Origin: Planctomycetota bacterium | GTDB taxonomy: Bacteria; Planctomycetota; Brocadiia; Brocadiales; Bathyanammoxibiaceae | Reading direction: 5' to 3' | NCBI GenBank assembly: GCA_023261505.1 | Contig: JAHFOV010000004.1 | Span: 1-63,752, forward strand | Length of the DNA stretch: 63,752 nucleotides | Shown: piece after piece, positions 2,054-60,697 of the stretch | How the letters are laid out: each line of letters begins with the position of its first letter | Numbering within the stretch: position 1 is the first letter of the stretch | Notes under the pieces: generated by a model | The model's database searches: none | What the model was told of the DNA's origin: nothing | What the model saw: the letters and a program-made list of their open reading frames with translations, nothing else | Made by a program: the position numbers and the translations under genes

Positions 2054-2896
2054 ATGATTAAGAAACAGACTGGCGAGACCAACTTTATAAAATTCCTTGG
2101 TACAGCTGGGGCTCGCTTTGTGGTGTCTACTCAGTTAAGGGCCTCCGGTGGGATATGGTTCTCACTGGACGGTGTTAATATCCTTGGAGACCCAGGGCCA
2201 GGATGTCTTGTCCGCTGTATAGCCAGCAGACCGAAGATGAATCCTGCAAGACTTAATGCTATAATGATAACCCACAGGCATCTGGACCATTGTGCCGATG
2301 TTAACATTATGATAGAGGCCATGACTGAGGGTGGAACAAAGAAGAGGGGTGTGCTCTTTGCACCCAGGCAGGCACTAGAGGAAGACCCAGTGGTCTTTCA
2401 GTATGTAAGGAAATTTCTGTCAAGACTGGAGATACTTAAAGAAGGAGGTACTTATTTCGTCGGGAGTCCGCCTAAGGCGGATGCCACTCAATTGGATGGT
2501 GTATCCTTTTCCACCCCCATAAGGCACCAGCATCCAGTGGAGACCTACGGGGTAAATTTTAAGACCCCCCTGGTGACTATCTCTTGGGTGGTAGATACGG
2601 CTTTCTTTCCCGAACTGTTAAAACTATACAAAGGAGAAGTATTGATACTCCACTCTGTTAGATACAAGGATGAAAATGATAAAGAAAAAGGCATTTATCA
2701 TCTCAATCTAGATGACGTAAAGACTATCGTCAATGAGCTTAGGCCCAAAGTCACCTTCCTTACCCATTTTGGCATGAAGATGCTAAAGGCTAAGCCCCAC
2801 GAACTAGCAAGGGAGCTTTCGGAAGAAACGGGGTGCCGGGTAATTGCTGCAAGTGATGGAATGAAGTTTGATTTAACCAACCTTAGCGAGGCTTAA
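2054..2896 (+). CDS. MBL-fold metallo-hydrolase (PhnP/RNase Z-like)
   Basis: FLGTAG, DPGPG, THRHLDHCAD (HxHxDH) and later H, D and THFG metal ligands. Confidence 0.9.
   Translation: MIKKQTGETNFIKFLGTAGARFVVSTQLRASGGIWFSLDGVNILGDPGPGCLVRCIASRPKMNPARLNAIMITHRHLDHCADVNIMIEAMTEGGTKKRGVLFAPRQALEEDPVVFQYVRKFLSRLEILKEGGTYFVGSPPKADATQLDGVSFSTPIRHQHPVETYGVNFKTPLVTISWVVDTAFFPELLKLYKGEVLILHSVRYKDENDKEKGIYHLNLDDVKTIVNELRPKVTFLTHFGMKMLKAKPHELARELSEETGCRVIAASDGMKFDLTNLSEA
2467..2481. repeat. TCCGCC-N3-GGCGGA micro-palindrome family (this copy in frame in the MBL gene)
   Basis: Further copies at 20367, 22044, 34905, 41013, 56160 and 60483. Confidence 0.8.
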
Positions 2897-2904
2897 AATT
2901 TAAG

Positions 2905-5196
2905 ATGAATATCCTTCATGTCATGCTCAAAGCAGATTCCTTGTGGCTAACATTTTTTGCAGTTGCCGCACCAGGGAAAGGGGGACTCCTTAACCATTTT
3001 TTCCCTCATATCACTATCCCTCCTATTCTGAGACCCTTAATTAGCTTTGCAAAGGCACACCCGGGTTACCTGGTGGCTTTTCTCTTGTTAATGGCCCTGG
3101 GCATCCTTATCGGTATAATCATCGGCGTAAAAAAGGGGAGGGAAAAGAGATTAAGGCATCTGGCCCTCTTTAAGCCTGTGGCTAAAATAGCCGCTTCTGA
3201 CCTGGGTATTAAAAATTATCTGGGCAAAGGGTCATATTTAAGAAGACAAAGCGATGAGGCCCTGACAAATCTTTTAGAGGAAGGGGCATCAGCCGTTCTA
3301 ATTTTAGGAAGGCCCGGTTCGGGAAAGACACGTACTGTTTTTGAGGCGCTAAGGGCAAAGGAAGACCATTACCTGCTGGCCCCAAAACCCAGACTGACTT
3401 CTTTGAAGGAACTCACAGTACCAGGCTTGTCTAAGAAGAAGCTAATCTTATTCCTTGACGACCTTTACAGGTATGTGAATAAGACAGACGTGGTTGGATT
3501 ATTCAGACAACTAGAAGGCAGGGCCAAGGGGTTTGTGTTCATTGCCACTTGCGCACCTGACAAGCTACCCTTCCTGGAAAAAGAGGCGCCTGAATTCCTT
3601 AGGCTCTTCAAGGCAAAAAAACGTATTTTTCTGAGAGACCTTTCACCTGCAGAACAAAAGTTCTTTATAGAGGTCCTGGGCTTTAATGAACAAATTTTTG
3701 CAACTAGCTTAACGCCAGCCTATTTCGCCCTTAATTTGGCCAACATGAAAGAGCGCTATAAGGGCTCTGAAAATATAAGGGCGATTATTCATTCCTTGTT
3801 CCTCCTGCACAAGGCTTTTATATTTCACTGTGAAGAGTCCCTGGTAAAAGAAGCCTGTGAACAGGTCCTTGGAAAGCACTTCTCCCGTTCACAGTGGAGA
3901 GATGCCTTAAGAGATTTAGAAGCAATGAGTCTTACAGTGAAAGTCGACAGTACTCTTGAGTCTTACGAGAGGTATATGGATGAGGCTTTTGTAGATGACT
4001 ATACACCAAGTGAAAGGGATATTGATACCTTACAGGATGCGATTCTCAAATCAAAGGATGGCGAGGCATTGTTTGGATTGGGCACATACCGCATTACTAA
4101 TGGGCAGTGGGAAAAGGCCCTGCCAGTCCTGGAAAGGGCCATTGAAGTAAATCCTCATTCTAGTGAAGCACGTTATTCATTGGGTAAGGCCTATGAGCAT
4201 ATGGGAATGATGGAAAGGGCACTGGAGGCTTATAAACACGTTGTAAAGCTTGACAGCCATAACCCCGCAGCGCACTATGCCCTTGGCACTATCTATAATG
4301 AGATGTATATGGTAAAGGAGGCAGTAGAGGCCTTCAAGCATACTATACTACTAGACCCTTATCACTCTCGTGCCTATTTTCAGTTGGCCATGGCCTATGA
4401 AAAGGCAGGTATGATTGAAGAATGTCTGACAATGCTAAGGCAGGTCACACGGCTTGACCCCGATTTTTCAGAGGCCCGTCGTTATCTGGCGAATCTCTAT
4501 CAGAAGAGGGGACAGTATGGAGAGGCCCTACAGGAGTATAGAGAACTGGTCAGGATAAACCCCGATGATGAGGAGGCCCATCTCGTACTTGCTACGGCCT
4601 TCAATAAAATCGGTAGGGTAAACGAGGCTATGAACGAATTAAAGGAACTCATAAGGATAAACCCGGCCAACCTTAAGGCCCATTCTACCCTGGCCCTGGC
4701 CTATTACAGGAAAGGCATGCTGGAAGAGGCGATCAAGGGATTTAAAGACGTACTCATACTTAATCCTGATGACCTTGCTGCCCGCTCTAATCTGGCACTT
4801 GCCTACTTAAAAAGGAACCTTTTAGACGAGGCCGTGGAGGAATATAGAGAGATTCTCATCCGTAAACCTGAGGATGTGGCAGCCCGTTTCAACATTGCCC
4901 AGGCCTATGAAAAGCAGGATAGAAAGGAGGAGGCCGTGGAAGGGTACAAAGAGGTGCTTAAGCACAACCCTGAACATGCGGAGGCCCACTATCGTTTGGC
5001 CATAATCAATTTAAAGGATGGATTATTGGAGGAGGCCCTAAAGGAACTCAAAGAGGTTGTAAGGCTAAGGCCAACCCATGCAATGGCACATGGTCAGCTT
5101 GCCATGATTTACCAGAAAGCAGGTCTTTTAGCAGAGGCAAGGAAGGAATACAGATCATACGAACGACTCAGGCCCGCTAAGACGAAGGGCTCTTGA
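2905..5196 (+). CDS. Membrane-anchored P-loop (STAND-like) NTPase with 11 C-terminal TPRs
   Basis: N-terminal hydrophobic segment(s), Walker A GRPGSGKT, Walker B LILFLDD, then 11 regular 34-aa TPR units. Confidence 0.8.
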   Translation: MNILHVMLKADSLWLTFFAVAAPGKGGLLNHFFPHITIPPILRPLISFAKAHPGYLVAFLLLMALGILIGIIIGVKKGREKRLRHLALFKPVAKIAASDLGIKNYLGKGSYLRRQSDEALTNLLEEGASAVLILGRPGSGKTRTVFEALRAKEDHYLLAPKPRLTSLKELTVPGLSKKKLILFLDDLYRYVNKTDVVGLFRQLEGRAKGFVFIATCAPDKLPFLEKEAPEFLRLFKAKKRIFLRDLSPAEQKFFIEVLGFNEQIFATSLTPAYFALNLANMKERYKGSENIRAIIHSLFLLHKAFIFHCEESLVKEACEQVLGKHFSRSQWRDALRDLEAMSLTVKVDSTLESYERYMDEAFVDDYTPSERDIDTLQDAILKSKDGEALFGLGTYRITNGQWEKALPVLERAIEVNPHSSEARYSLGKAYEHMGMMERALEAYKHVVKLDSHNPAAHYALGTIYNEMYMVKEAVEAFKHTILLDPYHSRAYFQLAMAYEKAGMIEECLTMLRQVTRLDPDFSEARRYLANLYQKRGQYGEALQEYRELVRINPDDEEAHLVLATAFNKIGRVNEAMNELKELIRINPANLKAHSTLALAYYRKGMLEEAIKGFKDVLILNPDDLAARSNLALAYLKRNLLDEAVEEYREILIRKPEDVAARFNIAQAYEKQDRKEEAVEGYKEVLKHNPEHAEAHYRLAIINLKDGLLEEALKELKEVVRLRPTHAMAHGQLAMIYQKAGLLAEARKEYRSYERLRPAKTKGS

Positions 5197-5262
5197 ATTC
5201 CAAATTAGAAATTTCAAATTTCAAATTAAAAATATATTTGCGATAATTTACTGCTGAACTTC

Positions 5263-5616
5263 ATGTTAAGAGGCATAACGTATATCCTCAGAAAGCTGGA
5301 CGAAGGCTGGGGGAAGCTAAGAAGGTTCTACCTGGTTCACTATAGAGGGGATTACGTCCAGAGGCAGCTGCTGCTAAGGAAAGGCGAGTGCCGGCGGTGC
5401 GGTAGTTGCTGCCGTATCATGTTCAGATGTCCGCATCTTAAGGGGGAAAATCAGTGCGATATATACACCTGCCGATATAAGCAGTGCATCGCCTTTCCTA
5501 TAGACAACCGCGACCTCAAATACCTTCGCCATACCTGTGGTCATTATTTTGTAAGTCCACGAGGTGGCAGGACCACCGCCATCATAGAGGTAGAAAGGAT
5601 TGAAGTTGTGAAATGA
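5263..5616 (+). CDS. YkgJ-like cysteine-cluster (Zn/Fe-S) protein
   Basis: CRRCGSCC...CPHL...CDIY..R...CIAFP...C pattern. Confidence 0.65.
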   Translation: MLRGITYILRKLDEGWGKLRRFYLVHYRGDYVQRQLLLRKGECRRCGSCCRIMFRCPHLKGENQCDIYTCRYKQCIAFPIDNRDLKYLRHTCGHYFVSPRGGRTTAIIEVERIEVVK

Positions 5617-6278: not shown

Positions 6279-6303
6279 AACTTGTAATGAGAGGAGCGAA
6301 TCC

Positions 6304-19544: not shown

Positions 19545-22500
19545 CTAATCTGCCTGTCTTAAGTCTTTGTCACTAATCCCGTAGTGCTGTTCAGCGGTAT
19601 CCAGAGTGGTCTGATAAGGGAGACTGATAGTAAAAGTGGTACCACAGCCAGGAGCCGAGTCTACTTTTACTGAGCCATTTGCCCTTTTAACAGCAGAATG
19701 AACGGCATAAAGTCCGAGTCCAGTACCCATTCCTGGCTCTTTAGTCGTATAAAATGGTAGAAATATCTTTTTTAGTTCCTTCTTAGGTATGCCATACCCT
19801 GTATCACCGATAACCAACTCCACAGTATCAGGAGAACCTCTTTGAGTAGTGATTTTTAGTGTACCGCCCTTTGGCATAGCATCCTTGGCGTTCAGGATAA
19901 GGTTTAGAAGTACTTGCTTCATGTCATCGGCATTTAGATAAAGCGGCGGAAGGGACTGAAGTACCTTTACTACCTGTATCTTGTTAACTTCCAATTCCTT
20001 ACCTACCAGAGAAAGGGTATCTTCTATAAGCTTATTGAGGTCACATGCCTCTAATACTCTCTTAGCCCTGTGAGAAAAGTCCAGGAGTTGGGTTATAATC
20101 CGCTGACAACGGCGAATCTCCTCCTGGATTATCTTCAGGTGATCCTTTATGTTGCCGTCTTGACCTCCTAATCCATCGCCAGGCGTACCAGAGAGGACTT
20201 CTTTTAGGTAGTATATGGAACTGCCTATAATGTTTAAGGGGTTGCGGATTTCGTGGGCCACTCCGGCGGCAAGCTGTCCTATAGCAGCCATCTTTTCTGA
20301 CTGCAGTAGCTCCATCTGCAACCTCTTAGGTTCAGTAATATCTCTAAAGGCAGCTACGAGGGCCAGTCCGCCTGAGGCGGATTTGTCCTCCTCTCTAATA
20401 AGGGAAGTAAATAAATAAACCGGAAACTCCTCTTCATTCTTCCTCTGAAAGAGCAATTCTCCTTCCCATCCTCCACGGCTAAATGTACTCTTCAATAGTT
20501 CCTTTTTCCACCCCTTTGGGCTGTTTGGCGACACTAAGAGGCTCATATCCTTGCCTAGCACCTCTGCGGTCTCATAGTGGGTAACCTTCTCAAAAGCCTT
20601 ATTGACGAAAGATATTTTGCCTTCCTTATCCGCTATAACAACACACTCGTCGATGCTTCTGATAGTATGGGCGAGGCGGAGGAGTTCTTCCTCGGCCTTT
20701 TTCCTCTCCGTTATATCTCTTACAAAGCTTCTGGCATGTATGAAGCGACCGCTCATAGCATCTCGCAGGCCAGTAGTATCCATCTCCACATACATCCACT
20801 GGCCGGGTTTGGTGAGGAAGACTGCCTCTGCACAGTCGTGTCCCGTTTCTGCCACCCTTGCGAGATGACTTCTGACATGTTTTTTATAATCCTTGGGGAC
20901 TATGTCCTCTAGCCTCAGCTTGAGCATCTCCTGGCAACTGTAGCCCAGGCGCTCAAGCTCGGTCTTGTTCACAGCCAGCAACTTTCCCTGGGCATCTAGC
21001 TGATGTATCATTTCTGGGGCATTTTCTATAAGGTCTCTATATTTTTCTTCCGAGTCACGAATCTTACAGAAGAGATTGGAGTTTTCTATGGCAATAGCCA
21101 GTTGTGGGGCCACTTGCATAAGGAGTTCTGCATGTTCCAGAGAAAAATTGTTTAACCTTTTACTGCCAAAGTTTAATGCTCCTATTACTCTCCCTTTATA
21201 CTGTAGAGGAAAATTTAGACGTGACCTGATTCCATCGGAGTAGAGGATATTATCAGTTGCAAGCTTTCCTTTAGATGTGTCGGGTACGATTATAGGTTTG
21301 CCAGTACCAACTACAATCTCAGTGGCGCTGCCCTCCCTTGGGAAGACTACTCCCTCGCATAGCTGGCTGGGCTCAGAGTTTTTTGTAAAGACTATGTATT
21401 CCAAAACACTTTTCTCCCCTAGAAGGAGGGTTATGCTGGTGCGATCAAAGTCTATTAACTTCCCCAGCTCGAGGCTAACCGCCTTGTATACCTCCTTTAA
21501 TTCAAGACTGGAGGCAAGGATTTTATTAATATTGGTAATTATATCTTTTTCTCTCTCGCGCTTTTTCTTCTCAGTAATATCTCTGATAATGCCTTCGTAG
21601 CCAATGATTTCTCCTTTGTCGTCCACTCTCAGGTCACAGGTCATCAAAGCAGTGAGCCGGGTACCTTCCTTCCTTTTTAGTTCCACCTCAAAATCTTTTA
21701 TAAAACCAGTTCCTTCCATGACACGGAGAAGGGTCTTTACATCTTCGGGATTTGTGCACAGGGTGCTTATAAATTTATGATTCAAAACCTCTTCTTTTGA
21801 AGAATATCCAAGTAGCTCTACACCAGCTTGGTTTATATCCAGGAATCTGTCTTCTGTGTCGCATATAAAGACGGCGTCCTTTGTGGCATCAAATAGGCTC
21901 CTGTAACGCTGTTCTGTGGCCTTCAAAGCCTGGGTTCTCTCCTCTACCATTCTTTCAAGGGTGGATGTATAGCGCTGAAGCTCAGCCTCCATGGCCTTCT
22001 GACGGGTAACGTCTCTGGAAATGGCGACAAAGCCTATGGGCCTTCCACCAGAGGTGGATTCGCTTCTCCTCAAAGTAAGCGTGAGACGTGAAGAAAAGAA
22101 GTCCCCCGTCTTACGCCTCCCCTGAAGGTCTATTTCATACCTGCCAGTCTTTTCTGTAATGGAAAGAGCCTTATCTAGCTTCCCATTCTCCTCTAAGAAG
22201 AGGGAGTGAATGAAGTACTTTCCCACTACTTCTTCCGGTTCATAGCCATACACTTTTCTTGCACCCTCATTGAAGGTCTGTATCTTTCCCTGGGGGTCTA
22301 AGGCAATGATGGAATACTCTGTGGAGCTCAAGAGGATGCTGTTAAGGAAATTGGTTGTTTCCTCTAGTCTCTTGGTCTTATCTCCTATAGCCGCCATCAT
22401 ATGGTTAAAAGAATTGCCTAGCTGTCCGATCTCATCAACCGCATCAATTTCTGCCCTCTGGGTAAGGTCTCCCTGGGCCATCTTCCTGGTGAGTTCTGTG

Positions 22501-23528
22501 AGGCGCAGGATTGGCCTTGATATTTTCTTTCCCAAGTAAAATGCTACTAAGACAATAGACACGCTCAAACTAAAGAGGATCCCGTTCACCGTTGTCTTCA
22601 GTTCATAAGCTACCCCCAGCGCCTCGTCTTTCCCCACCTCAGCGAGTATCCCTAGCCTAAACTCAGGTATCCATTGCCAGAAACCAAAGACTTCTATACC
22701 GGAGTAGCTACGGTAGCCCGTGACATTAAACCCATTTTGGCCTTTGAGGCAATCTTTCACAGCCAAAGTAGGTTGGCCATTTTGTGGGTCAGTAATTATA
22801 CTCCCAATACTTATACTCCCCTTAGGCCTATGTTTCAGCTCTGTAAGGGTAACCCCCTTGCTGTCTATCACGTAGGTCTCGCCACTTGTCCCAAGGTTAA
22901 CACTCTTCATCAAGCTGTTTATTCCCATTAACTCCGTTTGTAATATTAGAACACCTAAAACCTTGTTACCTGAGGTAATAGGGCTGGAAAAGAACATGCA
23001 TGGGATTTCATCTTTCTCATATCTCCACTCTAACTCACCCTGGGCGAGGTCTGTATCTTGCTTGTATTCTTGAGCCCTGGAGAAAATCTTGGAGATAAAG
23101 AACTGCCCGCTCAGGGCCCTTTGAAACGCTTCGGCCTCAAATATGTTGGTACCACAAAGGTATTCTGAGGTGGAGACCCTTACTTGGCCCTTTGCATCAC
23201 TAATTAGAACTTCCTTGTACCCATAAGATTCTTTGATAATATTCAGGAGGGCTGATAAAAGGAGGAACTCCTTTTCACTGGGGGTTAACTGTGTTCCCTG
23301 TATCACCAGAGGGTTTTGGGCAACAACCACGGCGTCCCTTACCCTTTCTCTCATCCAGATGGTGACAATCTCTGCCTGCTTTTTCCCCACGTTTTCCAGG
23401 TTCTTGATGACCTCTGTCCTAAGAGCCTTAAGCGCATGGGGATAGGCCAAAAACCTAAGGACTAGCAATGGCATAAAGGCGAGGAGGAGAAAAAGGACTA
23501 TAAGTCTTGTTTTTACTGATTTAAACAT
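19545..23528 (-). CDS. Multi-sensor histidine kinase (TM-Cache-TM-HAMP-PAS-PAS-GAF-PAS-PAS-HisKA-HATPase)
   Basis: H-box AHEIRNPL, N-box NLILNAKDA, DTGYGI, GTGLGL; repeated RDIT PAS ends. Confidence 0.93.
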   Translation of the reverse strand: MFKSVKTRLIVLFLLLAFMPLLVLRFLAYPHALKALRTEVIKNLENVGKKQAEIVTIWMRERVRDAVVVAQNPLVIQGTQLTPSEKEFLLLSALLNIIKESYGYKEVLISDAKGQVRVSTSEYLCGTNIFEAEAFQRALSGQFFISKIFSRAQEYKQDTDLAQGELEWRYEKDEIPCMFFSSPITSGNKVLGVLILQTELMGINSLMKSVNLGTSGETYVIDSKGVTLTELKHRPKGSISIGSIITDPQNGQPTLAVKDCLKGQNGFNVTGYRSYSGIEVFGFWQWIPEFRLGILAEVGKDEALGVAYELKTTVNGILFSLSVSIVLVAFYLGKKISRPILRLTELTRKMAQGDLTQRAEIDAVDEIGQLGNSFNHMMAAIGDKTKRLEETTNFLNSILLSSTEYSIIALDPQGKIQTFNEGARKVYGYEPEEVVGKYFIHSLFLEENGKLDKALSITEKTGRYEIDLQGRRKTGDFFSSRLTLTLRRSESTSGGRPIGFVAISRDVTRQKAMEAELQRYTSTLERMVEERTQALKATEQRYRSLFDATKDAVFICDTEDRFLDINQAGVELLGYSSKEEVLNHKFISTLCTNPEDVKTLLRVMEGTGFIKDFEVELKRKEGTRLTALMTCDLRVDDKGEIIGYEGIIRDITEKKKREREKDIITNINKILASSLELKEVYKAVSLELGKLIDFDRTSITLLLGEKSVLEYIVFTKNSEPSQLCEGVVFPREGSATEIVVGTGKPIIVPDTSKGKLATDNILYSDGIRSRLNFPLQYKGRVIGALNFGSKRLNNFSLEHAELLMQVAPQLAIAIENSNLFCKIRDSEEKYRDLIENAPEMIHQLDAQGKLLAVNKTELERLGYSCQEMLKLRLEDIVPKDYKKHVRSHLARVAETGHDCAEAVFLTKPGQWMYVEMDTTGLRDAMSGRFIHARSFVRDITERKKAEEELLRLAHTIRSIDECVVIADKEGKISFVNKAFEKVTHYETAEVLGKDMSLLVSPNSPKGWKKELLKSTFSRGGWEGELLFQRKNEEEFPVYLFTSLIREEDKSASGGLALVAAFRDITEPKRLQMELLQSEKMAAIGQLAAGVAHEIRNPLNIIGSSIYYLKEVLSGTPGDGLGGQDGNIKDHLKIIQEEIRRCQRIITQLLDFSHRAKRVLEACDLNKLIEDTLSLVGKELEVNKIQVVKVLQSLPPLYLNADDMKQVLLNLILNAKDAMPKGGTLKITTQRGSPDTVELVIGDTGYGIPKKELKKIFLPFYTTKEPGMGTGLGLYAVHSAVKRANGSVKVDSAPGCGTTFTISLPYQTTLDTAEQHYGISDKDLRQAD

Positions 23529-34850: not shown

Positions 34851-35531
34851 CTAAGACTTTGAGATTGGGACTAACGTTTTTCTCACAACCTCTAATCCTT
34901 CCAATCCGCCTAAAGCGGATACAATTGGTTTTAAGAGGGTCACAGTGGCCTCTGGTTCTGGATGATATGGGTCAAAAACTATTACAGGGCAATCCGGTCT
35001 TAAGTAAAGTAATTTTTCTCTGGCTGCGTCAATGTCCGCCTTCGTGTGATTCGGGGTCTTATTTATAACAAATAGGTTTATCCTATCCAGTATTTTCCTG
35101 GCTGACGGTTTTAATTCCAAAGTTCCGGGCGTTGCTATCATGAGGGCAAAGTCTACCCTTCTTATGCTAAGGAAGCTGTTTCCCTCTACAATGAGCCTGC
35201 CTCTGCGGGGAAAAAGTTTTAAGGCCTGACGAACGCCAGTTTCAAGGTCTTTGCGTTGGGTCTGCAACCAAACAACCGTTCTGGCGCCAGCCTCAAGGTA
35301 TTTGGCGGTATCCTTCCCTGGCTTGCTGAGGACGAAGGGGTCTGTAGTTATTTTAAAGGAAATGTTTCCTATGGTAGGACAGCCATCACAGTCTATTTCC
35401 TTTGGGCAAGCTCCCATGTGCTGGACTGTAATTTTTAAAGCATTTAAGTTCTTAAGCGTCCTTATTAGGAAAGAGGCCATGGTGGTCTTTCCTGAACCGC
35501 TTGAGGTACTGGTTATTGAGATTACCCTCAC
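34851..35531 (-). CDS. MobB-like P-loop protein
   Basis: SSGSGKTT, CPKEIDCDGC, KPGKDTAKYLEAGA..VVW and IVEGNS; ATG overlaps the nuoF stop. Confidence 0.6.
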   Translation of the reverse strand: MRVISITSTSSGSGKTTMASFLIRTLKNLNALKITVQHMGACPKEIDCDGCPTIGNISFKITTDPFVLSKPGKDTAKYLEAGARTVVWLQTQRKDLETGVRQALKLFPRRGRLIVEGNSFLSIRRVDFALMIATPGTLELKPSARKILDRINLFVINKTPNHTKADIDAAREKLLYLRPDCPVIVFDPYHPEPEATVTLLKPIVSALGGLEGLEVVRKTLVPISKS

Positions 35532-41009: not shown

Positions 41010-43913
41010 CTATCCGCCTAAGGCTGATAAAGGGGCCTGCCAGGCTTCCTTCAGGTTGTAGATGTTCTCATGTACTAACGTCCTGTGATACCTATCTTTG
41101 ATAACAAAGGTGGTCTCTTTTTTCACCCTGCCTAGGAGACCGTATGGGATACCTTTTAGAGTCTTTTCAAAGGCACTTGCCATCTGAGGCCTTACCTCTA
41201 CAAGAAAACGGGAGTTAGACTCGGAGAAGAGCAGTACATCATCTCTATTAATCCTTCCATCTGCCGGCACTTTTTCAAGGCTTAACTCCATGCCCAAACC
41301 CCCTGCAAAACTCATTTCAGCTGCGGCCACCGCTAGCCCCCCTTCAGAACAATCGTGGCAGGCCCTTACCAGGCCCTTCCTGGTAGCCCTGGAAAGGGCC
41401 TCCATCGTCTTCTTCGCCCAGTGAGTATCCACTTCCGGGACACTGCTGCCAACGTAGCCGTGAATGAAGTAGTGGTGAGAACCACCAAGTTCCTTCTTGG
41501 TTAGCCCAACAATATATATAAGATCGCCCGGCTCCTTTGCATCCATAGTGACTGCCTTCCTGACATCCTCTATTACCGCCATAGCAGAAATAAGGAGCGT
41601 GGGCGGTATGTTCATAGTGGTATCATCCATGCGAAATTCGTTGTTGAGGCTATCCTTGCCTGATATGAACGGTGTACCAAAATAAAGGGCCATATGATAA
41701 CAAGCCAAGGCCGCTCTGACTAGCCCCCCCAGTTGTTCGGGTATGTTTGTATTTCCCCAGCAAAAGTTATCAAGTAGGGCCACCCTCTCTAGGTCACCTC
41801 CTACAGAGATTATCTGTCTTAGGGCCTCGTCTATTGCTGAGGCTGCCATATGGTAAGGGTCAATATCTCCATACTTTGGGTTCATGCCACAGGAGACTAT
41901 AATACCTTTGTGAGAGCCCAGGACGGGTGTCGCCACGGATGCGTCCCCTGGGCCATCATGGGCTATTCCTTGCAGGGGTTTAAGAACACAACCCCCCTGA
42001 ACCTCGTGGTCATACTGTCTTATGACCCACTCTTTACTGCACACATTCCACGAGGAAAGGATTCTTTTAAGGTCTTCCGTATAGTCCCTCTTTTTGGGAA
42101 GGTCAGGTTCGGGGTAATTGGGTAAGACCCAATTTGCCTTTTTCATTGGGCGGGGGAGACCCTTATGGAGAAAGTTCATATCTAGCTCTCCAACCTCTTG
42201 TCCCTGATACATCAGGCGAAGTCTTTTGTCGTCGGTGAACCTGCCGATTACAGTAGCTTCTACATCCTCAGAATGGAAGAGTTTTATAATTTCTTCTATG
42301 TGCTTTGAAGGTACTGCCAGTACCATCCTCTCTTGAGATTCTGAGAGCCATATCTCCCAGTACGAAAGGCCACTATATTTGAGGGGTACCTTTTCTAGGT
42401 CAACCTCTGCCCCGGTACCCTTTCCCATCTCTCCAACGGCAGAGGATAACCCTCCTGCCCCACAGTCAGTAATAGAATTGTACAGGCCTTTGTCTCTTGC
42501 TACCAAAAGTACGTCAAGAAGTTTTTTTTCTGTGATAGGGTTACCAATCTGGACGGCACCTCCCGAAAGCGCCTTTGAGTCCTCAGTGAGTTGCGAAGAG
42601 GAAAAGGTCGCCCCGTGAAGTCCATCCCGGCCCGTTCTGCCACCCACCAGAAGGATAGCATCTCCAGGCTTTACTCTCTTTTTACACCGATTACTGGGTA
42701 TGAGCCCCACGGTACCACAGAAAACAAGGGGATTGGCCACATAGCGGTCGTCAAAGTATATGGCGCCATTGACTGTAGGGATGCCCATGCGGTTGCCGTA
42801 GTCTGCCACACCATGCACAACTCCCTTAAATATTCTTTTTGGGTGGAGTACTCCTTTAGGCAGGTGGCTATAGGGGAGGTCCGGTCGGGCAAAACAAAAT
42901 ACGTCTGTATTAAGGATGGGTTTGGCCCCGAGCCCGCAGCCCAGTATGTCACGGATAACGCCTCCTACCCCTGTGTTTGCCCCGCCGTAAGGCTCCAGGG
43001 CCGAGGGATGATTGTGGGTCTCTACCTTAAAGCAGAGGTTATTATCCCTGTCAAATTCTACGATGCCAGCATTGTCTGTGAATACACTCACACACCAAGG
43101 CTTTTTAAGCTCCCTGGTAGCCCGCATTATTGTACTCTCAAGAAGGTTATCTATAACTTCTACAACCTCTCCTTTGTCTTCTATATGTCCCTTACGGTAT
43201 TCAATACGGCCCTTAAGTGTCTTGTGCATGCAGTGTTCTGACCAGGTCTGGGCCAAGGTCTCTAGCTCTATATCTGTAGGCTCTCTGTCTATTCGCTGAT
43301 AATAGGATTGGATAGCCTGCATTTCCTCAAGGTTGAGGGCCAACTGCCTCTGGCCACTAATTTCCAGAAGTCTTTCTGGGCTGGCCTCTCTTATAGGGAT
43401 AGAAACCTTATTAAAAGCATAGGAAGAAGCTTTTCTTTCATAAGGAACACTATCTGTTTCGAGGAATACATCTTCAATAGTATTGTTTGCCAGTATCTTG
43501 CTAGCAATAGTCTCCAGTTCTTCCCTAGTGAGTTCACCCTGGATAAGGTACTTCCTGGCCCTCTTTACCCAGTCTACTTTTATGCCCATATCCGCAATCC
43601 CCTCAAGGGTAGTAGCTTCTACAGGATCCATTACCCCTGGCTTCCTAACCACTTCAATGACGTGGCACTGCGTGCCTTTTCTCTGTGGGAGATGTGAATC
43701 ATAAGCATAATCCTGGACTACAGTGTCGGCAAGAAGTTCTGAACATATTTTTTCTAATTGATCTTTGGAGAGAGAGCCTTCCAGGAGATATACTTCCACC
43801 ACCCTAACCTCCCGTACCCCTTTTATGCCCAGAGCTTGTACCTCTGATAGGATGGCCTCTCCCAGGCGGTCGGGAAGGTTTTCTTTCTGGAAGACTTCAA
43901 TCCTTACTGGCAT
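41010..43913 (-). CDS. purL: FGAM synthase PurL (with N-terminal PurS-like repeats)
   Basis: QTWSEHC.HK, ETHNHPSA.EPYGGA, DCGAGG, SESQERM and ISGKDSLNNE; likely start MPVRIEV. Confidence 0.96.
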   Translation of the reverse strand: MPVRIEVFQKENLPDRLGEAILSEVQALGIKGVREVRVVEVYLLEGSLSKDQLEKICSELLADTVVQDYAYDSHLPQRKGTQCHVIEVVRKPGVMDPVEATTLEGIADMGIKVDWVKRARKYLIQGELTREELETIASKILANNTIEDVFLETDSVPYERKASSYAFNKVSIPIREASPERLLEISGQRQLALNLEEMQAIQSYYQRIDREPTDIELETLAQTWSEHCMHKTLKGRIEYRKGHIEDKGEVVEVIDNLLESTIMRATRELKKPWCVSVFTDNAGIVEFDRDNNLCFKVETHNHPSALEPYGGANTGVGGVIRDILGCGLGAKPILNTDVFCFARPDLPYSHLPKGVLHPKRIFKGVVHGVADYGNRMGIPTVNGAIYFDDRYVANPLVFCGTVGLIPSNRCKKRVKPGDAILLVGGRTGRDGLHGATFSSSQLTEDSKALSGGAVQIGNPITEKKLLDVLLVARDKGLYNSITDCGAGGLSSAVGEMGKGTGAEVDLEKVPLKYSGLSYWEIWLSESQERMVLAVPSKHIEEIIKLFHSEDVEATVIGRFTDDKRLRLMYQGQEVGELDMNFLHKGLPRPMKKANWVLPNYPEPDLPKKRDYTEDLKRILSSWNVCSKEWVIRQYDHEVQGGCVLKPLQGIAHDGPGDASVATPVLGSHKGIIVSCGMNPKYGDIDPYHMAASAIDEALRQIISVGGDLERVALLDNFCWGNTNIPEQLGGLVRAALACYHMALYFGTPFISGKDSLNNEFRMDDTTMNIPPTLLISAMAVIEDVRKAVTMDAKEPGDLIYIVGLTKKELGGSHHYFIHGYVGSSVPEVDTHWAKKTMEALSRATRKGLVRACHDCSEGGLAVAAAEMSFAGGLGMELSLEKVPADGRINRDDVLLFSESNSRFLVEVRPQMASAFEKTLKGIPYGLLGRVKKETTFVIKDRYHRTLVHENIYNLKEAWQAPLSALGG

Positions 43914-44820
43914 AGGATTTATTATCAGGTAGACTGTCCCGGATATTCTTGGCCCTCTTAAGTCGTGCAAAAAGCTGTTTAGAGTCTTTTTTGAGGAGTG
44001 CCTTTTTAATCAAATCTATCTCTTCCTGAAAATCTGTAATGGCCTCTAAAAGGGCCTCTCTGTTTTGGAGGTGTATTTCTTGCCAAAGTGTAGGCTCACT
44101 TGAGGCAATCCTTGTAGTGTCTTTGAACCCCCTGGCAGTGAAGTTTTTTTGGCCTGGTCGTAAGACGTTCACGAGAGAAGCCGCTACCAGTTGCGGGAGG
44201 TGACTTATGAAGGCCATTATTAAATCGTGTTCTTCCGGGGAGAGAAACTTGACCTTTGCCCCAAGGGCTTCCCACATACCTTTTATTATGTCCCTGGCCC
44301 GCCGGCTTTCTCTGGAGTTGTTAGCCTGCCCATTCCCTCTGACAGGCGTAAGGATACAAAGTGCCCCTTGAAAAAGGTCTGGCTGAGCGGCCTCTATACC
44401 TCTTTGCTCAGACCCTGCTAAGGGATGGCCTCCAATAAATTTCACATCTTTTTGGCATTGTAGGGGCAATTCATGAATTGCCCCTAGAATTTTCTTTACG
44501 ATATAACTTTTTGTGCTACCCACATCCGTAAGGATAGCAGAGTTTTTCATCCAAGGTATTACCCTCTCGGCCATCGAAGGGATAAGTTCTACTGAGGTAC
44601 ATAAGATTACCACATCTGCCTCCCTTACACCTTCTTTTAGGTCTTTGGTGGCCTGGTCTATAGCACACATCTCTAGAGCTTTCTCCAGGGAAGATTCTCT
44701 GTGCCCTACTCCTATGACCTTCTTCGCTAGGTTATGCCCCTTCAGGCCAAGACCAATAGACCCACCTATAAGACCAGGGCCAATTATAGATACTGTTCCA
44801 AGGCTTCGTATCTTTTGCAT
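43897..44820 (-). CDS. tyrA: Prephenate dehydrogenase
   Basis: GPGLIGGS, TDVGSTK, GGHPLAGSE, EHD...ISHLPQ and GFKDTTRIASS. Confidence 0.93.
   Translation of the reverse strand: MQKIRSLGTVSIIGPGLIGGSIGLGLKGHNLAKKVIGVGHRESSLEKALEMCAIDQATKDLKEGVREADVVILCTSVELIPSMAERVIPWMKNSAILTDVGSTKSYIVKKILGAIHELPLQCQKDVKFIGGHPLAGSEQRGIEAAQPDLFQGALCILTPVRGNGQANNSRESRRARDIIKGMWEALGAKVKFLSPEEHDLIMAFISHLPQLVAASLVNVLRPGQKNFTARGFKDTTRIASSEPTLWQEIHLQNREALLEAITDFQEEIDLIKKALLKKDSKQLFARLKRAKNIRDSLPDNKSYASKD
44461..44486. repeat. Perfect 26-bp REP-like palindrome inside tyrA
   Basis: TAGGGGCAATTCATGAATTGCCCCTA; encodes LGAIHELPLQ in frame. Confidence 0.9.
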
Positions 44821-56097: not shown

Positions 56098-56198
56098 ACG
56101 GCTTTTGAGGAGGGGCCTTGGCAGAATTGTAAAATGAAGATTGGAAATTATAAATTTAATCCGCCTCGGGCGGACCGATCTGCAATACAATCTTTCCC

Positions 56199-57068
56199 CT
56201 AGAGATCCAACCCTTTCAGGTACTGACGAAAGTCGTCGCCAAGCTCTGGATTCTTTAACGCCAACTCTACTGTGGCCTTCAGGAAGCCAAGCTTGCTACC
56301 ACCGTCATGTACTTTTCCTTTTATCTCGCAGGCGAAGAGGGCCGTATTATCCAACACTTTTTTCAAGGCATCTGTAAGCTGGATTTCCCCATTGGCACCG
56401 GGGGAAGTTCTTTCCAGTATATCAAATATTTCTGGCGGTAAGATGTATCGCCCGATAATCGCCAGGTTTGAAGGCGCTTTTTCTGGGGATGGCTTTTCTA
56501 TCAGGTCTAAGACTTCGTGTACCCCAGAACTTACTTGGTTGGCCTTTATTATTCCGTATCGAGATACCTCAGACTGCTCCACCCTGCTCACTCCAATCAC
56601 AGGGTCTTTGTAATGTTCATACACATCCATTAGCTGTTTAAGTCCCGGCGTCTCCGAGTCTATTATCATGTCCCCCAGTAGAACTGCAAATGGTTCGTTC
56701 CCAACTGCCTCACTGGCGCAAAGGACTGCGTGGCCTAATCCAAGGGCCTCCTTCTGCCTCACATAACAGAAGCTTACCAGGTTAGAGATCTTTTGGATTT
56801 CCCTGAGGAGCTTTTCCTCCCCCTTCTGTTCCAGGATACGCTCCAGCTCGGAGGAGGTATCAAAGTGGTTTTCTATAGCCTGTTTTCCCCTTCCTGTTAC
56901 CAGAATGACCTGCTCCACACCCGATTCCTTTGCCTCTTCCACTATGTACTGAATCATAGGTTTGTCTACTATGGGGAGCATCTCTTTGGGAGAGGCTTTG
57001 GTGGCGGGCAAGAACCTGGTGCCCAGGCCTGCTACTGGTAATACAGCTTTTCGTACCTTTTGCTTCAA
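56199..57068 (-). CDS. galU: UTP--glucose-1-phosphate uridylyltransferase
   Basis: PVAGLGTRFLPATKA.PKEMLP, GLGHAV, EKP and EIQLTDA. Confidence 0.96.
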   Translation of the reverse strand: MKQKVRKAVLPVAGLGTRFLPATKASPKEMLPIVDKPMIQYIVEEAKESGVEQVILVTGRGKQAIENHFDTSSELERILEQKGEEKLLREIQKISNLVSFCYVRQKEALGLGHAVLCASEAVGNEPFAVLLGDMIIDSETPGLKQLMDVYEHYKDPVIGVSRVEQSEVSRYGIIKANQVSSGVHEVLDLIEKPSPEKAPSNLAIIGRYILPPEIFDILERTSPGANGEIQLTDALKKVLDNTALFACEIKGKVHDGGSKLGFLKATVELALKNPELGDDFRQYLKGLDL

Positions 57069-57602: not shown

Positions 57603-57797
57603 TTACTGGCCCAGCAGATGTTTTACTTTTTTGGCCTGGGTTTCATGAACGAGGCACTTTTTGCGCAAGTGACGACGGCGCTTAGCCGATTTCCCTGACA
57701 TCAGATGGCTTTTATAGGCCCTGCTGTGCAGGACCTTCCCCCTGGCAGTAACTTTAACCCTCTTGGCTAGTCCTCTATGAGTTTTTATCTTTGGCAT
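57603..57797 (-). CDS. rpmI: 50S ribosomal protein L35
   Basis: MPKIKTH...KR.K.T..GK...SH. Confidence 0.96.
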   Translation of the reverse strand: MPKIKTHRGLAKRVKVTARGKVLHSRAYKSHLMSGKSAKRRRHLRKKCLVHETQAKKVKHLLGQ

Positions 57798-57809
57798 AAT
57801 TAGTTTCCT

Positions 57810-58307
57810 TTAGGTCTTTGGGGCTAGGAGTAGACCCATCTTTCTACCGTCAAGTGTCACCTCTTTTTCTACCTTGGCTATATCCTCAAGCTCTTGTGCA
57901 AATTTCATGAGCATTTCCTTTCCTAGCGCCGCATGCACCCTTTCCCTTCCCCTAAAAACCATGTTCACCAGTACTTTATCTTTCTTTTCTAAGAACTTTC
58001 TGGCCTGATTAATCTTCGTCTGGAGGTCATGAGGGTCTATCTTTGGCCTTATCCTCAGTTCTTTTAATTGAGAAGCATGATGTTTTTGTGTCTTTTTCCT
58101 CTGGCGGTACTTGAATTTTCCAAAATTCAAGAGGCGGCAAACCGGCGGAACTGCTTGAGGCGCCACCTCCACTAAGTCCAGTTCTGCTTCCCTTGCCTTT
58201 TGCAACGCCTCCTCCCTTGTAAATACCCCCAACTGGGCGCCCTTATCATCTACAAGCCTTATCTGCTTTGCAAAAATCCTTTCGTTTATTCTGTATTCTT
58301 GAGAAAT
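57810..58307 (-). CDS. infC: Translation initiation factor IF-3 (ATT start)
   Basis: AGGAGG-7nt-ATT at 58307 gives (M)SQEYRINERIFAKQIRLVD..., in frame with the ORF-track protein; DLVEV.P...PPVC and FRGRE. Confidence 0.93.
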   Translation of the reverse strand: MSQEYRINERIFAKQIRLVDDKGAQLGVFTREEALQKAREAELDLVEVAPQAVPPVCRLLNFGKFKYRQRKKTQKHHASQLKELRIRPKIDPHDLQTKINQARKFLEKKDKVLVNMVFRGRERVHAALGKEMLMKFAQELEDIAKVEKEVTLDGRKMGLLLAPKT

Positions 58308-58336
58308 AAAAAAACCTCCTTCTTAAAAAGTTAGTT

Positions 58337-60262
58337 TCAAAGTTTTTCCTTGATTTCCCTCTCTAGACGAACCAAAAGGGCGTCTGTTGAGAGGCTACCT
58401 TCGTCCCCCTTCTCTCTGCTTCTAAGGGAGACTGAACCCTGCTCTACCTCTTTGTCACCTATTATCAGGAGGTACGGCACTTTCTCCATCCTCCCCTCCC
58501 GAATCTTATAGCCAATGGTAGTATTTCTTAGGTCACACTGAACCCTGAGACCTTTTTCTTGAAGACTAGCTTTCACACTGTTGGCATAATCAGCGTGAGT
58601 TTCCTTTATCGTAAGTACCTTCACTTGTGTCGGTGCTATCCATAGGGGGAAGGCTCCAGCATAATGCTCTATTAAACATCCCAGGAAGCGCTCCATGGCC
58701 CCCAATACTGTGCGGTGAATCATTACCACCTTGTGCTCTTTTCCGTCTGGACCTACGTAGTTAACATCAAATCTCTCCGGTAGGTTAAAATCTACCTGGA
58801 TAGTGGGACCCTGCCAGCCCCTGCCAAGGGCATCCTTTATCCTTATATCTATGGAAGGGCCATAAAACTTGGCCTCTCCTTCACCTACCACAAATGGGAG
58901 ATGCTTGTACTCGAGGGCCCGTTTAAGGGCTGTTTCTGCTGCCTCCCAATTTTTGTCACTTCCAATATATTTGTCTTTTTCTCCCTTACCCCTGATGGCC
59001 AGTTCCATCTCGTATTCCCTGAACCCAAATGAGGAAAGCATATACTGGGCCAGTTCTAAAACACCTATTACCTCTCCTTCTAGCTGGCTAGGTGTACAGA
59101 AGATATGAGCATCGTCCTGCGTAAAACCCCTTACCCTTAGAAGGCCATGCAGCACTCCAGAGCGCTCATAGCGATAGACTGTTCCCAGTTCAGCAAGCCG
59201 AATTGGAAGGTCCCGGTAGCTTATAGTTTCAGACTTGAAGATAAGTATAGCAAAGGGGCAGTTCATAGGCTTTACCAGATACTGGCTGGTTTCCAGTTCA
59301 AATGGGGCAAACATACTCTGGCGGTAGAAATCCCAGTGTCCGCTGGTATGCCAGAGGCTAGCCTTGGCTATATGAGGGCTGTAAACAATTTCATAACCTC
59401 TTTTATAGTGTTCGTCACACCAGAACCTCTCTATGACGTTCCTTATACGAGCCCCTTTTGGATGCCAAAGAACTAGCCCAGGACCACAGTCCTCTCTGAA
59501 GCTGTACAACTGCAATTCTTTTCCCAGCTTCCTGTGGTCTCGCCTTTTAGCCTCTTCCAAAAGTTGTATGTATCGCTCCAAATCTTCTCTATTAAAGAAG
59601 GCAGTGCCGTAAATGCGCTGGAGCATTGGGTTTGTTTCCTTGCCCCTCCAGTATGCCCCAGCCACGCTGAGAAGTTTAAAGGCCTTTAACCTACCAGTGG
59701 CAAAAATGTGTGGGCCCCGACAAAGATCGAGAAACTCCCCCTGCCTGTAAAGGCTTATAGCCTCCTCCTCCTCCATATCCTTTAGAAGTTCTACCTTAAA
59801 TGGTTGGCGGATTTCTCCCATCTTCTTTATTGCCTCTTCACATCGGAGGAGTTGTCTCTCAAAGGCCAGGTTTTCCTTTATAATTTTACTCATCTCGGCT
59901 TCTATTTTTTCCAGGTCTTCCTGGGTTAACGGCCTATCCAGACGAAAATCGTAATAGAAGCCATTTTCTATAGTAGGCCCAATTCCCAACTCTGCCCCAG
60001 GAAAGAGCCTCTGTACAGCCTGTGCCATTATATGGGCTGCACTATGACGGAGGATATCTAAACCCTCAGGGGTGTCCTCAGTTATAACAGATAGGGAAGT
60101 ATCTTTCGTTAGGGGAAAACTAAGATCTACAAGAGTGCCGTTGGTTTTTCCTGCTACCGCCTTATCGTAGCAGGATTCACCAAGGTCTTTGGCAACCTGT
60201 TCTACTGTAGTATTTTCCCTGTAAGTCTTTTCTATACCGCCAGGTAACTTAACTTTAACCAC
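58337..60262 (-). CDS. thrS: Threonine--tRNA ligase
   Basis: TGS domain, RHSAAH, DLCRGPH, RDHRKLG, KPMNCP, RVRGFTQDDAH and an anticodon-binding domain. Confidence 0.98.
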   Translation of the reverse strand: MVKVKLPGGIEKTYRENTTVEQVAKDLGESCYDKAVAGKTNGTLVDLSFPLTKDTSLSVITEDTPEGLDILRHSAAHIMAQAVQRLFPGAELGIGPTIENGFYYDFRLDRPLTQEDLEKIEAEMSKIIKENLAFERQLLRCEEAIKKMGEIRQPFKVELLKDMEEEEAISLYRQGEFLDLCRGPHIFATGRLKAFKLLSVAGAYWRGKETNPMLQRIYGTAFFNREDLERYIQLLEEAKRRDHRKLGKELQLYSFREDCGPGLVLWHPKGARIRNVIERFWCDEHYKRGYEIVYSPHIAKASLWHTSGHWDFYRQSMFAPFELETSQYLVKPMNCPFAILIFKSETISYRDLPIRLAELGTVYRYERSGVLHGLLRVRGFTQDDAHIFCTPSQLEGEVIGVLELAQYMLSSFGFREYEMELAIRGKGEKDKYIGSDKNWEAAETALKRALEYKHLPFVVGEGEAKFYGPSIDIRIKDALGRGWQGPTIQVDFNLPERFDVNYVGPDGKEHKVVMIHRTVLGAMERFLGCLIEHYAGAFPLWIAPTQVKVLTIKETHADYANSVKASLQEKGLRVQCDLRNTTIGYKIREGRMEKVPYLLIIGDKEVEQGSVSLRSREKGDEGSLSTDALLVRLEREIKEKL

Positions 60263-60310
60263 GCAGCGACCTTAAACACTTGAACCTTTGAACCCTTGAA
60301 CTCTTAACGG

Positions 60311-60387
60311 TGGTGGGCGATAGTGGACTTGAACCACTGACCTCTTGCTTGTCGAGCAAGCGCTCTAGCCAACTGAGCTAATCGCCC
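60311..60387 (-). tRNA. tRNA-Val(GAC)
   Basis: GGGCGAT acceptor stem, CTTGC-TCGACAA-GCAAG anticodon arm, GGTTCAAGTCC and encoded CCA. Confidence 0.95.
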
Positions 60388-60397
60388 TAAGTAAAAA

Positions 60398-60426
60398 ATG
60401 CTAACAAAAAGACTTAAAACTGTCAA
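60398..60426 (-). promoter_or_regulatory. sigma70-type promoter for tRNA-Val/thrS
   Basis: TTGACA-17-TAGCAT ending 11 bp before the tRNA 5' end. Confidence 0.65.
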
Positions 60427-60446
60427 GGAAATTAAACATAACCTTC

Positions 60447-60697
60447 TGTGGAGTATATAGACATGGGTAACACTTTGGATAATCCGCCTGAGGCGGACCG
60501 TAGGGATAGGCGGCTTGCGACTTTTTCCAGGAGGTGCTACCATGCCCAAATATTATTACTTACAGCTCATTCGTAAGAGATTGGCCTGGATACGCATGTA
60601 TGAAAAAGTCAAATCTGCGGTCTTCCTTCTTACAGTTGAGGCGGTAAGGTCTACAGAAGAAATTGGGTGGGTGCGAAAATGGATGAAAACGGCTTGA
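60447..60697 (+). mobile_element. Possible IS481-family remnant (left end plus transposase N-terminal stub)
   Basis: TGTGGAGTATATAGACATGGGTAACACTTT end-like sequence; GGAGG plus ATG 60542 gives ..RKRLAWIRMYEK..RKW, HTH-like; no DDE domain. Confidence 0.45.

Follow-up and report, generated by a model that had tools for sequence, protein, structure and literature searches.

Palindromic elements of Rickettsia, ~100-150 bp long and found in that genus only, are true insertions that add 30-50 residues to proteins; Ogata and colleagues are said to have described them in 2000 as lying in frame in coding genes, where the added peptides are reportedly tolerated in loops. The mobile GC clusters (or 'byp' elements) of yeast mitochondria are short GC-rich hairpins of 27-55 nt or longer, some of which are bypassed in translation. 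In Pseudomonas fluorescens, REPINs (hairpin-forming doublets of repetitive extragenic palindromic, or REP, sequences) are short GC-rich palindromes moved by REP-associated tyrosine transposases (RAYTs), which are Y1 HUH transposases (PMC3116915). The cyanobacterial highly iterated palindrome HIP1 (GCGATCGC) is 8 bp long, occurs about once per kb, is kept by selection, is linked to methyltransferases and, by one proposal, comes about through point substitutions (PMC5861425, PMC4390886). The small dispersed repeats SDR1-8, which are sequence-defined and 21-27 nt long, have been reported from Nostocaceae only (PMC5861425). They lie in genes, spacers and each other, are present or absent at the same site between relatives and have no known mobilising enzyme (PMC5861425, PMC4390886); SDR5 is described as inserting precisely within HIP1 (PMC4390886). 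Here we describe a 15-nt palindrome that has seven copies in a stretch of 63,752 nt from a Planctomycetota bacterium of the family Bathyanammoxibiaceae (GenBank assembly GCA_023261505.1, contig JAHFOV010000004.1, positions 1 to 63,752; hereafter the window), and compare it with these systems.

We think it fairly probable that this 15-mer is a miniature, non-autonomous mobile hairpin element that overwrites its target. It is a discrete unit that has turned over between close relatives and overwritten target bases, its flanking bases are biased, its density is 5.6 times higher outside open reading frames (ORFs) than within them, and it occurs in many phyla. An initial annotation of the window had proposed a very short mobile hairpin that adds peptide to proteins; the gain of a unit at new sites agrees with this, but the gain is not a plain insertion, as about 6 bases of the target are overwritten. 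The genome holding the window (G000, in which the window is contig C52) is an assembly of 2.5 Mb with 46% GC in 147 contigs. All copies were read from assembled genomes, and gene calls are ORF-based.

A discrete 15-mer that overwrites its target

The motif was first annotated as TCCGCC-N3-GGCGGA. In this form it occurs 178 times in G000, where about none would be expected, and the spacer is always 3 nt. Because the loop is T-N-A in 158 of the 178 copies, which fit TCCGCCT-N-AGGCGGA, the true consensus is a perfect palindrome longer than the annotated motif. The copies are unusually pure, with 158 exact matches, 77 that differ at one base and 91 that differ at two. The window holds four exact copies (0 expected from 100 dinucleotide shuffles), two that are one base off and one that is three bases off. 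The annotation had proposed counting the motif against a codon-shuffled null; when synonymous codons were permuted over the 1857 long ORFs (83% of the genome), 0-2 copies appeared per shuffle, against 83 observed. Within the long-ORF set the exact palindrome encodes 29 of 38 SASGG and 15 of 30 SALGG pentapeptides, and permuted pentapeptides of equal composition occur 0-3 times. The half-sites TCCGCC and GGCGGA number 805 and 839 genome-wide, with about a fifth of each lying within the palindrome, and the core GCCTNAGGC is found 320 times, 158 of them with the full 15-mer arms around it. As a single strand, the 15-mer forms a hairpin of a 6-bp stem and a 3-nt loop (-6.5 kcal/mol).

Flank logos (+-30 nt) are flat save for R at -1 and Y at +15, with nothing beyond +-1-2 nt and no T-tract 3' of the hairpin. 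With no conserved flanks, the 15-mer is not the core of a larger repeat. A larger composite element was likewise rejected, as the compound elements seen, of the TTCGCC type, belong to other REPs invaded by the 15-mer. A literature search for the 15-mer sequence or for anammox repeats found nothing relevant.

The non-ORF part of the genome (17%) carries 53% of the copies. In ORFs of at least 120 aa the codon phase (the codon position at which the motif starts) is strongly biased, with 57 copies starting at position 1 (SA[SL]GG), 26 at position 3 (xPP[KEQ]A[DE]) and 23 at position 2 ([IV]RLRR[TM]). The excess of the Ser/Ala/Gly reading may reflect selection for harmless linker-like peptides. Stop codons rule out half of the orientations for position-1 copies, and the orientation of such copies relative to genes is unbiased (15 vs 15). 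Host selection for the hairpin itself, as an RNA stabiliser or terminator, a replication or segregation signal or a DNA-uptake sequence, would suit the higher density outside ORFs, the placement of some copies at gene ends (56160 in the window, and the 3' end of purL in four genera) and the few copies conserved across genera. We nevertheless hold it to be quite improbable, given the lack of orientation bias and of a T-tract, the location of about half of the copies inside ORFs, the turnover within a genus, and the absence or rarity of the motif in close relatives of the same lifestyle. Known uptake sequences are also far denser than the 15-mer, of which there is 1 copy per 14-16 kb.

The nature of a gain is seen where orthologues lack the motif. 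Across genera, segments of +-60 residues were taken around coding copies deep in ORFs of at least 200 aa (57 sites), 36 of them were concatenated and searched against relatives, and the matching DNA was then aligned. The comparison genomes (G004, G001 and G006) represent three other genera, with 55-90% amino-acid identity to G000. Among 59 well-flanked comparisons the net length difference is +3 codons in 34 and +4 codons in 5, and never +5; counted per site, +3 codons was found at 16 of 28 informative sites relative to orthologues without the motif. Within one sister genus, four genomes (G001, G008, G012 and G010, the last being 'Planctomycetes bacterium RIFCSPHIGHO2_12_FULL_52_36') with 90-96% DNA identity provided ~15 clean events. 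An automated count gave +9 nt in 8 of 15 and +15 in none, and by eye the alleles comprise eight cases of +9 and one of +12. Thus GGTTG/15-mer/TTCAGG stands opposite GGTTG/GGGTGA/TTCAGG, CTCTG/15-mer/CTCC opposite CTCTG/GTAACC/TCCC, GCCAG/15-mer/CAC opposite GCCAG/GGAGCT/CCA, GTAAG/15-mer/GAGG opposite GTAAG/CCTCTG/CAGG, CGAG/15-mer/TGCC opposite CGAG/CTGACG/TGCC, and GGCA/15-mer/GACC opposite GGCA/GAGGCC/AATC (slashes bound the exchanged stretch). Net changes in ORFs are nearly always multiples of 3. No target duplication was seen in the same-genus allele pairs; instead, 6 target bases are lost. The hexamers that were overwritten are no closer in sequence to the element than random ones (P=0.11), and for this reason a pre-existing half-site or microhomology at the targets was rejected.

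Outside any frame filter, paralogous REPs of G000 with and without the 15-mer show swapped tips. In these, GTCATTGCGA/GCGAAGC/GAAGCAATC has become GTCATTGCGA/15-mer/GAAGCAATC, CCAGCGA/CTATGTCG/CTGG has become CCAGCGA/15-mer/CTGG, and ATTCG/CCTCAG/GCGAAC has become ATTCG/15-mer/GCGAAC. In the alignments, which were read by eye, the commonest replaced length is 6 nt (range 3-12 nt). At one further site, the 15-mer in G010 occupies the place of a 34-nt REP hairpin of another family in G008. Since the 15-mer stands where relatives have ~6 unrelated bases, and since REP tips are swapped, the event is one of replacement, in which ~6 nt (3-34 nt) of target, in many cases the tip of an older hairpin, give way to a fixed 15-mer.

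The flanking bases G..T (45 copies) and A..C (44), which are the same 17-mer read on opposite strands, account for 89 of the 178 copies. At +-1, 33 Watson-Crick pairs were counted overall where 63 would be expected, and in ORF copies 9 were counted where 28.5 would be; the pattern is present in every codon phase, and the commonest dinucleotides 5' of the 15-mer are AG and AA. As the empty alleles mostly carry the flank bases already, we read the bias as a target preference, 5'-(A)G/N6/T. Flank complementarity at offsets 3-6 is enriched in non-coding copies only, which fits copies sitting on older REP stems. In ORF copies there is no complementarity at offsets 3-10, and insertion onto pre-existing stems inside genes was rejected accordingly.

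Could point mutation have produced such a motif? A HIP1-like iterated palindrome, in the sense of a binding or methylation site built by biased point mutation or selection, would likewise be a perfect palindrome with a free centre, with copies in genes and spacers alike. The core CCTNAGG, a type II restriction site, occurs 1553 times in G000, ~3 times the composition estimate; a few sites (seg1, seg10, 34905 and 41013) show no length change, and some copies are kept across genera. What makes this origin improbable is the dominance of +9 nt over unrelated sequence, a change of length that a HIP1-type substitution ratchet (PMC4390886) cannot produce. The 14 specified bases also far exceed methyltransferase sites, the density given above is low for such a site, and shared copies decay (see below).

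The two 7-nt inverted halves around one free base would equally be expected of a scar, that is, of the joined termini of an excised larger element (an insertion sequence, IS, or a REP-like one), the central base being freed by mismatch repair of overlapping ends. Tc1/mariner footprints are the model here; the 34-nt hairpin and the 15-mer as alternative alleles at one site would suit it, and the net +9 recalls 9-bp target duplications. A footprint together with a duplication should, however, add at least 15 nt and keep the target, whereas here 6 bases are lost and none is duplicated, so that a scar is very improbable.

The seven copies in the window

Seven copies had been annotated in the window. 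Those at 2467, 20367, 56160 and 60483 are indeed exact, but those at 34905 and 41013 have one mismatch, and the copy at 22044 differs from the consensus at three positions. The frames and peptides given for the five coding copies (SPPKAD, SASGG, STSGG, SALGG and, before a stop, SALGG again) were all correct.

The exact copy TCCGCCTAAGGCGGA at 2467..2481 lies in a gene for a metallo-beta-lactamase (MBL)-fold protein (2054-2896, plus strand), where it starts at codon position 3 and reads S-PPKAD. G000 has GGGAG/15-mer/TGCCAC and G001 has GGGAG/TGGCCC/TGCCAC, a net difference of +9 nt; the whole 11-codon loop is missing from the G004 and G006 orthologues. A second exact copy, at 20367..20381, is in a gene on the minus strand (19545-23528) that had been called a kinase and that encodes a sensor histidine kinase with the domain order dCache-HAMP-PAS-GAF-HisKA-HATPase. 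On the minus strand it reads TCC GCC TCA GGC GGA, or SASGG (aa 1050-1054), in the last PAS domain. The alleles are AAA/TCCGCCTCAGGCGGA/CTG in G000, AAA/AGACCC/CTT in G004 and AAA/GACCCA/CTC in G001, G000 being longer by 3 codons relative to three genera. Judged from these aligned alleles, 2467 and 20367 are demonstrated gains of +9 nt, and alignment with orthologues thus supports the annotated peptides as additions at these two sites, but not at 34905 and 41013.

The degenerate copy in the same kinase gene, TCCACCAGAGGTGGA at 22044..22058 (TCCACC-AGA-GGTGGA, reading STSGG), had been taken to carry a compensatory pair change that betrays upkeep of the hairpin. Its arm changes are two CpG transitions, the commonest class of decay, and the arm variant TCCACC-N3-GGTGGA occurs only twice genome-wide; the copy is probably an old one, decayed by these two transitions and one loop change. 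It sits in a loop of variable length, 3 codons shorter in G006, equal in G004 (SNLGT) and 15 codons longer in G001. The longer loop of the G001 orthologue (locus L328), SAFTTVGGAPPSGGTIASEG, stands where G000 has STSGG, and the loop appears from these alignments to accept repeated insertions.

At 34905..34919, the one-mismatch copy TCCGCCTAAAGCGGA encodes SALGG near the 3' end of a gene for a MobB/CbiA-like P-loop protein (34851-35531, minus). G001 has V-A-L-E-G (GTGGCCCTGGAGGGA) at equal length, and the G004 and G006 alignments end within the site, the C-terminal tails being different. There is no length gain relative to the aligning orthologue, which argues against reading this copy as an insertion. 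The other one-mismatch copy, TCCGCCTAAGGCTGA at 41013..41027, forms the last five codons (SALGG) of purS-purL (41010-43970, minus), directly before the stop. Here G004 ends in HILGG and a stop (CACATATTAGGTGGATAA) at equal length and without the palindrome, G006 closes on another palindrome (ACCGCTAAGGCGGTAA), and in G001 a perfect 15-mer of independent origin follows a few codons later, with an extended C-terminus (..GPVRLRRTRAVGS and a stop). The copy seems to be either an old shared one or a sign of a hot spot at the gene end, and not a demonstrable insertion; by the refuting condition that the annotation itself had set, its reading of this end and of the MobB-like copy as insertions fails. 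The small palindrome in the last codons of purS-purL differs among the four genera (window 41010-41030; loci L314, L316 and L318), and this 3' end looks like a recurrent landing site.

The remaining two copies are intergenic, as annotated. The copy TCCGCCTCGGGCGGA at 56160..56174, with exact arms and the loop TCG, lies 25 nt past the stop of a minus-strand ORF (56199-57068). The exact copy at 60483..60497, which has canonical flanks (A-TCCGCCTGAGGCGGA-C), lies between tRNA-Val (60311-60387, minus) and tRNA-Arg (60753-60827, minus). The surrounding 1.5 kb (60263-61818) is without long ORFs and holds these two minus-strand genes, tRNA-Val(GAC) and tRNA-Arg(TCT), and an unannotated AT-rich region upstream.

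Age, distribution and candidate mobilisers

In copies shared with the sister genus, 16 of 434 specified positions differ (3.7%, against 7.1% in the flanks), with C>T and G>A as the main changes. Only exact query copies were admitted, so that 3.7% is about one lineage's share of ordinary divergence; in these alignments we see no sign of strong purifying selection on the copies, and the earlier idea that the hairpin is maintained as a structure finds no support in them. When applied to the 158:77 ratio of exact to one-off copies, a neutral-decay formula gives a mean age of ~3% divergence per site, and the ratio points to recent activity. Four copies of G000 are common to G001 and absent from G004 and G006.

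Within the class (132 genomes), 70-308 copies are found in 9 of the 14 genomes of the family and 142 in the only genome of one sister family; each of the remaining 117 genomes has 0-5. In a scan of 596 Gb of species-representative genomes, ~2000 single matches are expected by chance, and thus lone matches are no evidence, while flank bias and multi-copy loci count; the distribution that follows is drawn from the matches listed. Among these, 134 copies in 120 loci have R..Y flanks in 59% (25% expected) and A..C or G..T in 44 (16.8 expected), and at several loci 2-4 copies fall in a stretch of 8 kb. Multi-copy loci among the matches listed come from Sedimentisphaerales, other Planctomycetota, Ignavibacteria, Chloroflexota, Elusimicrobia, Lentisphaerae and Balneolaceae.

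The single-contig chromosome record of one member of the Bacteroidales (OY782677.1) contains 28 copies, most of them in two tandem arrays made up of incomplete copies of tRNA-Met and tRNA-Leu genes (L356, 2341800-2344000; L357, 4296000-4297500). The arrays comprise sixteen 90-bp units, each holding a truncated tRNA-Met (5' part), and seven 169-bp units, each holding a 3' part of tRNA-Leu, beside an intact tRNA-Met and an intact tRNA-Leu(CAG). In each unit the 15-mer replaces part of the anticodon stem/variable region (ACCCGAAGGT) or the variable-arm hairpin (TGGCCTTACGGCT), which is again replacement of one hairpin by another. The tandem units themselves look like stacked attachment-site remnants of integrative elements. 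Three other loci (L208 from uncultured Aquimarina, L231 from Psychroflexus sediminis DSM 19803 and L216 from a metagenome-assembled genome, or MAG, of Thermodesulfobacteriota) have a common right flank, GGCGGA-TGTATC; the left flank GAGTG is common to the first two only. No Rfam family matched at these three loci or at the copies in other phyla, and Rfam found only three ordinary tRNAs in the window. A tRNA or other structured RNA as a universal template was rejected, as the motif is in no tRNA of G000 and has no Rfam match elsewhere.

It should be noted that carriers among the matches listed are nearly all MAGs, as might be expected if the 15-mer were an assembly or sequencing artefact of metagenome bins. 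Such an artefact is barely credible, however, since point mutations distinguish orthologous copies between independent assemblies, net changes in ORFs preserve the frame, codon phase is strongly biased, and the Bacteroidales copies lie in a single-contig chromosome.

If the 15-mer is mobile in this way, a HUH transposase of the RAYT or IS200/IS605 type, as the annotation had suggested, would be a candidate for moving it, and the 15-mer could then be an ordinary REP/REPIN-type repeat, shorter than usual, moved by the genome's own RAYT. G000 is rich in REP families and does encode a RAYT-like protein of 276 aa (contig C118:8044-8874, minus; locus L354:1393-2223), with a Y1_Tnp score of 26.5 bits, the HUH motif 'NHFHG' and the Tyr motif 'NYYEH'. 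The one-sided (A)G / CT flank preference is also suggestive, as the E. coli RAYT reportedly (Ton-Hoang and co-workers, 2012) cuts at CT beside REP hairpins. The evidence on the other side makes this unlikely. A Pfam scan of 31 relatives for Y1_Tnp shows no correlation with copy number: the domain is present in motif-poor G002, G004 and G006 and is abundant in zero-copy families. At 11 of 12 RAYT loci from 10 relatives there is no 15-mer-like sequence within ~1 kb on either side; the twelfth, in G008, has one 1-mismatch and one 2-mismatch copy nearby. The G000 gene lies near REPs of the GTAG type and near no 15-mer, the 15-mer has no GTAG tag, and about half of its copies are in long ORFs. To our knowledge, Y1 transposition deletes no target bases. 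A RAYT or IS200 link was therefore rejected as unsupported.

The RAYT-like gene of G000 is interrupted, in frame, by a REP of the GTAG type; translated sequence of this REP type ('VGADLCVRP'-like) makes up its N-terminus and the part from the HUH motif to the Tyr motif, so that the presumed mobiliser of the GTAG REP family appears to have been invaded in frame. Other hairpin families of this genome include CCCTTT-N3-AAAGGG, CTCCTT-N3-AAGGAG and, in compound elements, TTCGCC-N3-GGCGAA. Two long families, AATCCCCCTnAGTCCCCCTTT-N3-AAAGGGGGA... and TACCACCCCT..CCCCTCCTT-N3-AAGGAGGGG..., have 44 and 31 copies, and a compound family (36 copies) combines TTCGCC-N3-GGCGAA, TCTGCC-N3-GGCAGA and GATTCGCCAATTTTTGTGGCGAAC hairpins; example sites of these three are C1:4096-5454, C88:1330-5654 and C25:53145. 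A further REP family has the form GTCATTGCGA-GCGAAGC-GAAGCAATCTC (e.g., C103:6919-7033, C76:41115-41224), its central heptamer being replaced by the 15-mer in a subfamily. The GCGAAGC at the REP centre is an unusually stable DNA mini-hairpin.

Mechanism and comparison with known systems

Several observations weigh against a mobile hairpin that overwrites its target. There is no length change in 4 of the 59 cross-genus comparisons with well-aligned flanks, or in about 10-15% of comparisons overall, and sites of this kind could be of point-mutation origin or old shared copies. Of the four copies that G000 shares with G001, two have the same 15 bases throughout, one of these between flanks that have diverged, which hints at constraint or re-conversion and not at pure neutrality. 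No mobilising protein was found by the profile scan, at the RAYT loci or at dense loci, and the genes at the densest G000 loci and at multi-copy loci of other phyla are housekeeping or unrelated ones. Finally, we know of no transposition chemistry that gives a fixed loss of 6 bp of target.

If the 15-mer is nevertheless such an element, it is fairly probable that a trans-acting activity, specific for both sequence and structure, places the hairpin in single-stranded or hairpin DNA. The single strand would fold into its 6-bp stem and 3-nt loop, and the putative activity would copy or ligate the hairpin into the target, a process that might be called 'hairpin-cap exchange'. The target might be cut at two points, across a loop or a minimal span of 6 nt, and the hairpin cap then sealed in; alternatively, the same product would result if another copy served as template when replication restarts. 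The new copy would replace a short stretch, most often the 6 nt of 5'-(A)G/N6/T, and in non-coding DNA often the complete tip of a hairpin that was there before. In genes, where only frame-preserving outcomes survive, proteins thus gain three codons; Ser-Ala-Ser/Leu-Gly-Gly would be added most often, in variable loops, and the copies would later decay without strong constraint. The bolder version, in which 'hairpin-cap exchange' is a DNA chemistry not described before, carried out by an enzyme that cuts G/N6/T or across a stem and seals in the 15-nt hairpin, and in which the enzyme-element pair has spread horizontally through many phyla, we regard as doubtful. On the main proposal, the presence of the same 15-mer in distant phyla means that either an enzyme spreads horizontally or the hosts have a conserved activity of this specificity.

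Were the main proposal true, a sequence-defined unit of 15 nt would be the smallest mobile DNA seen in bacteria and, were 'hairpin-cap exchange' true as well, the smallest known mobile genetic element. Proteins would be remodelled three codons at a time, and the tips of other repeats and the remnants of tRNA genes rewritten. A hairpin written into G/N6/T sites may be of use as a chemistry for tagging or editing. In annotation, many small lineage-specific loop insertions would be explained by the copies, which could also be used as markers for strain-level phylogeny.

Among described systems, the 15-mer resembles REP and REPIN sequences in being a short GC-rich palindrome with hundreds of copies, non-autonomous, of lineage-specific abundance, and nesting in or next to repeats. 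REPs, however, are imperfect palindromes of 20-40 nt with a GTAG-type tag that are almost wholly extragenic, move as doublets and cluster at RAYT genes, whereas the 15-mer is a perfect palindrome with 83 of its 178 copies in long ORFs, overwrites its target and occurs in many phyla. No link to a RAYT was found for it: the presence of Y1_Tnp does not follow its copy number, the RAYT genes are not flanked by it (11 of 12 loci), and it has no tetranucleotide tag. The parallel that the initial annotation drew with Rickettsia palindromic elements holds for the in-frame gain of a unit absent from orthologues (+3 codons at the 16 of 28 sites), but not for size or host: the 15-mer has 15 nt, adds a net 3 residues in place of 2 codons, and is found in Brocadiia and many phyla.

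Like SDRs, the 15-mer is very small and is present or absent at orthologous sites among relatives (here G001, G008, G010 and G012). It is set apart from them by host phylum, by the lack of a fixed target word, by the overwriting of ~6 nt, by its shorter length and by its cross-phylum occurrence. Like HIP1, it is an abundant perfect palindrome that lies both in coding DNA and outside it and whose gain and loss are lineage-specific, but its origin involves a change of length, with a net +9 nt dominant. As with the yeast GC clusters, a short GC-rich hairpin has invaded the coding sequence of a genome of lower GC; unlike these, it is bacterial, 15 nt long and, as its reading frames suggest, translated. 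We know of no other mobile element that overwrites its target instead of duplicating it. An overwrite of 6 bases by 15 fits none of the known chemistries, whether DDE transposition with target duplication, HUH 'peel and paste', or tyrosine and serine recombinases, and the 15-mer differs from miniature inverted-repeat transposable elements and classical DDE insertions in that its sites have no target-site duplication and have lost 6 target bases.

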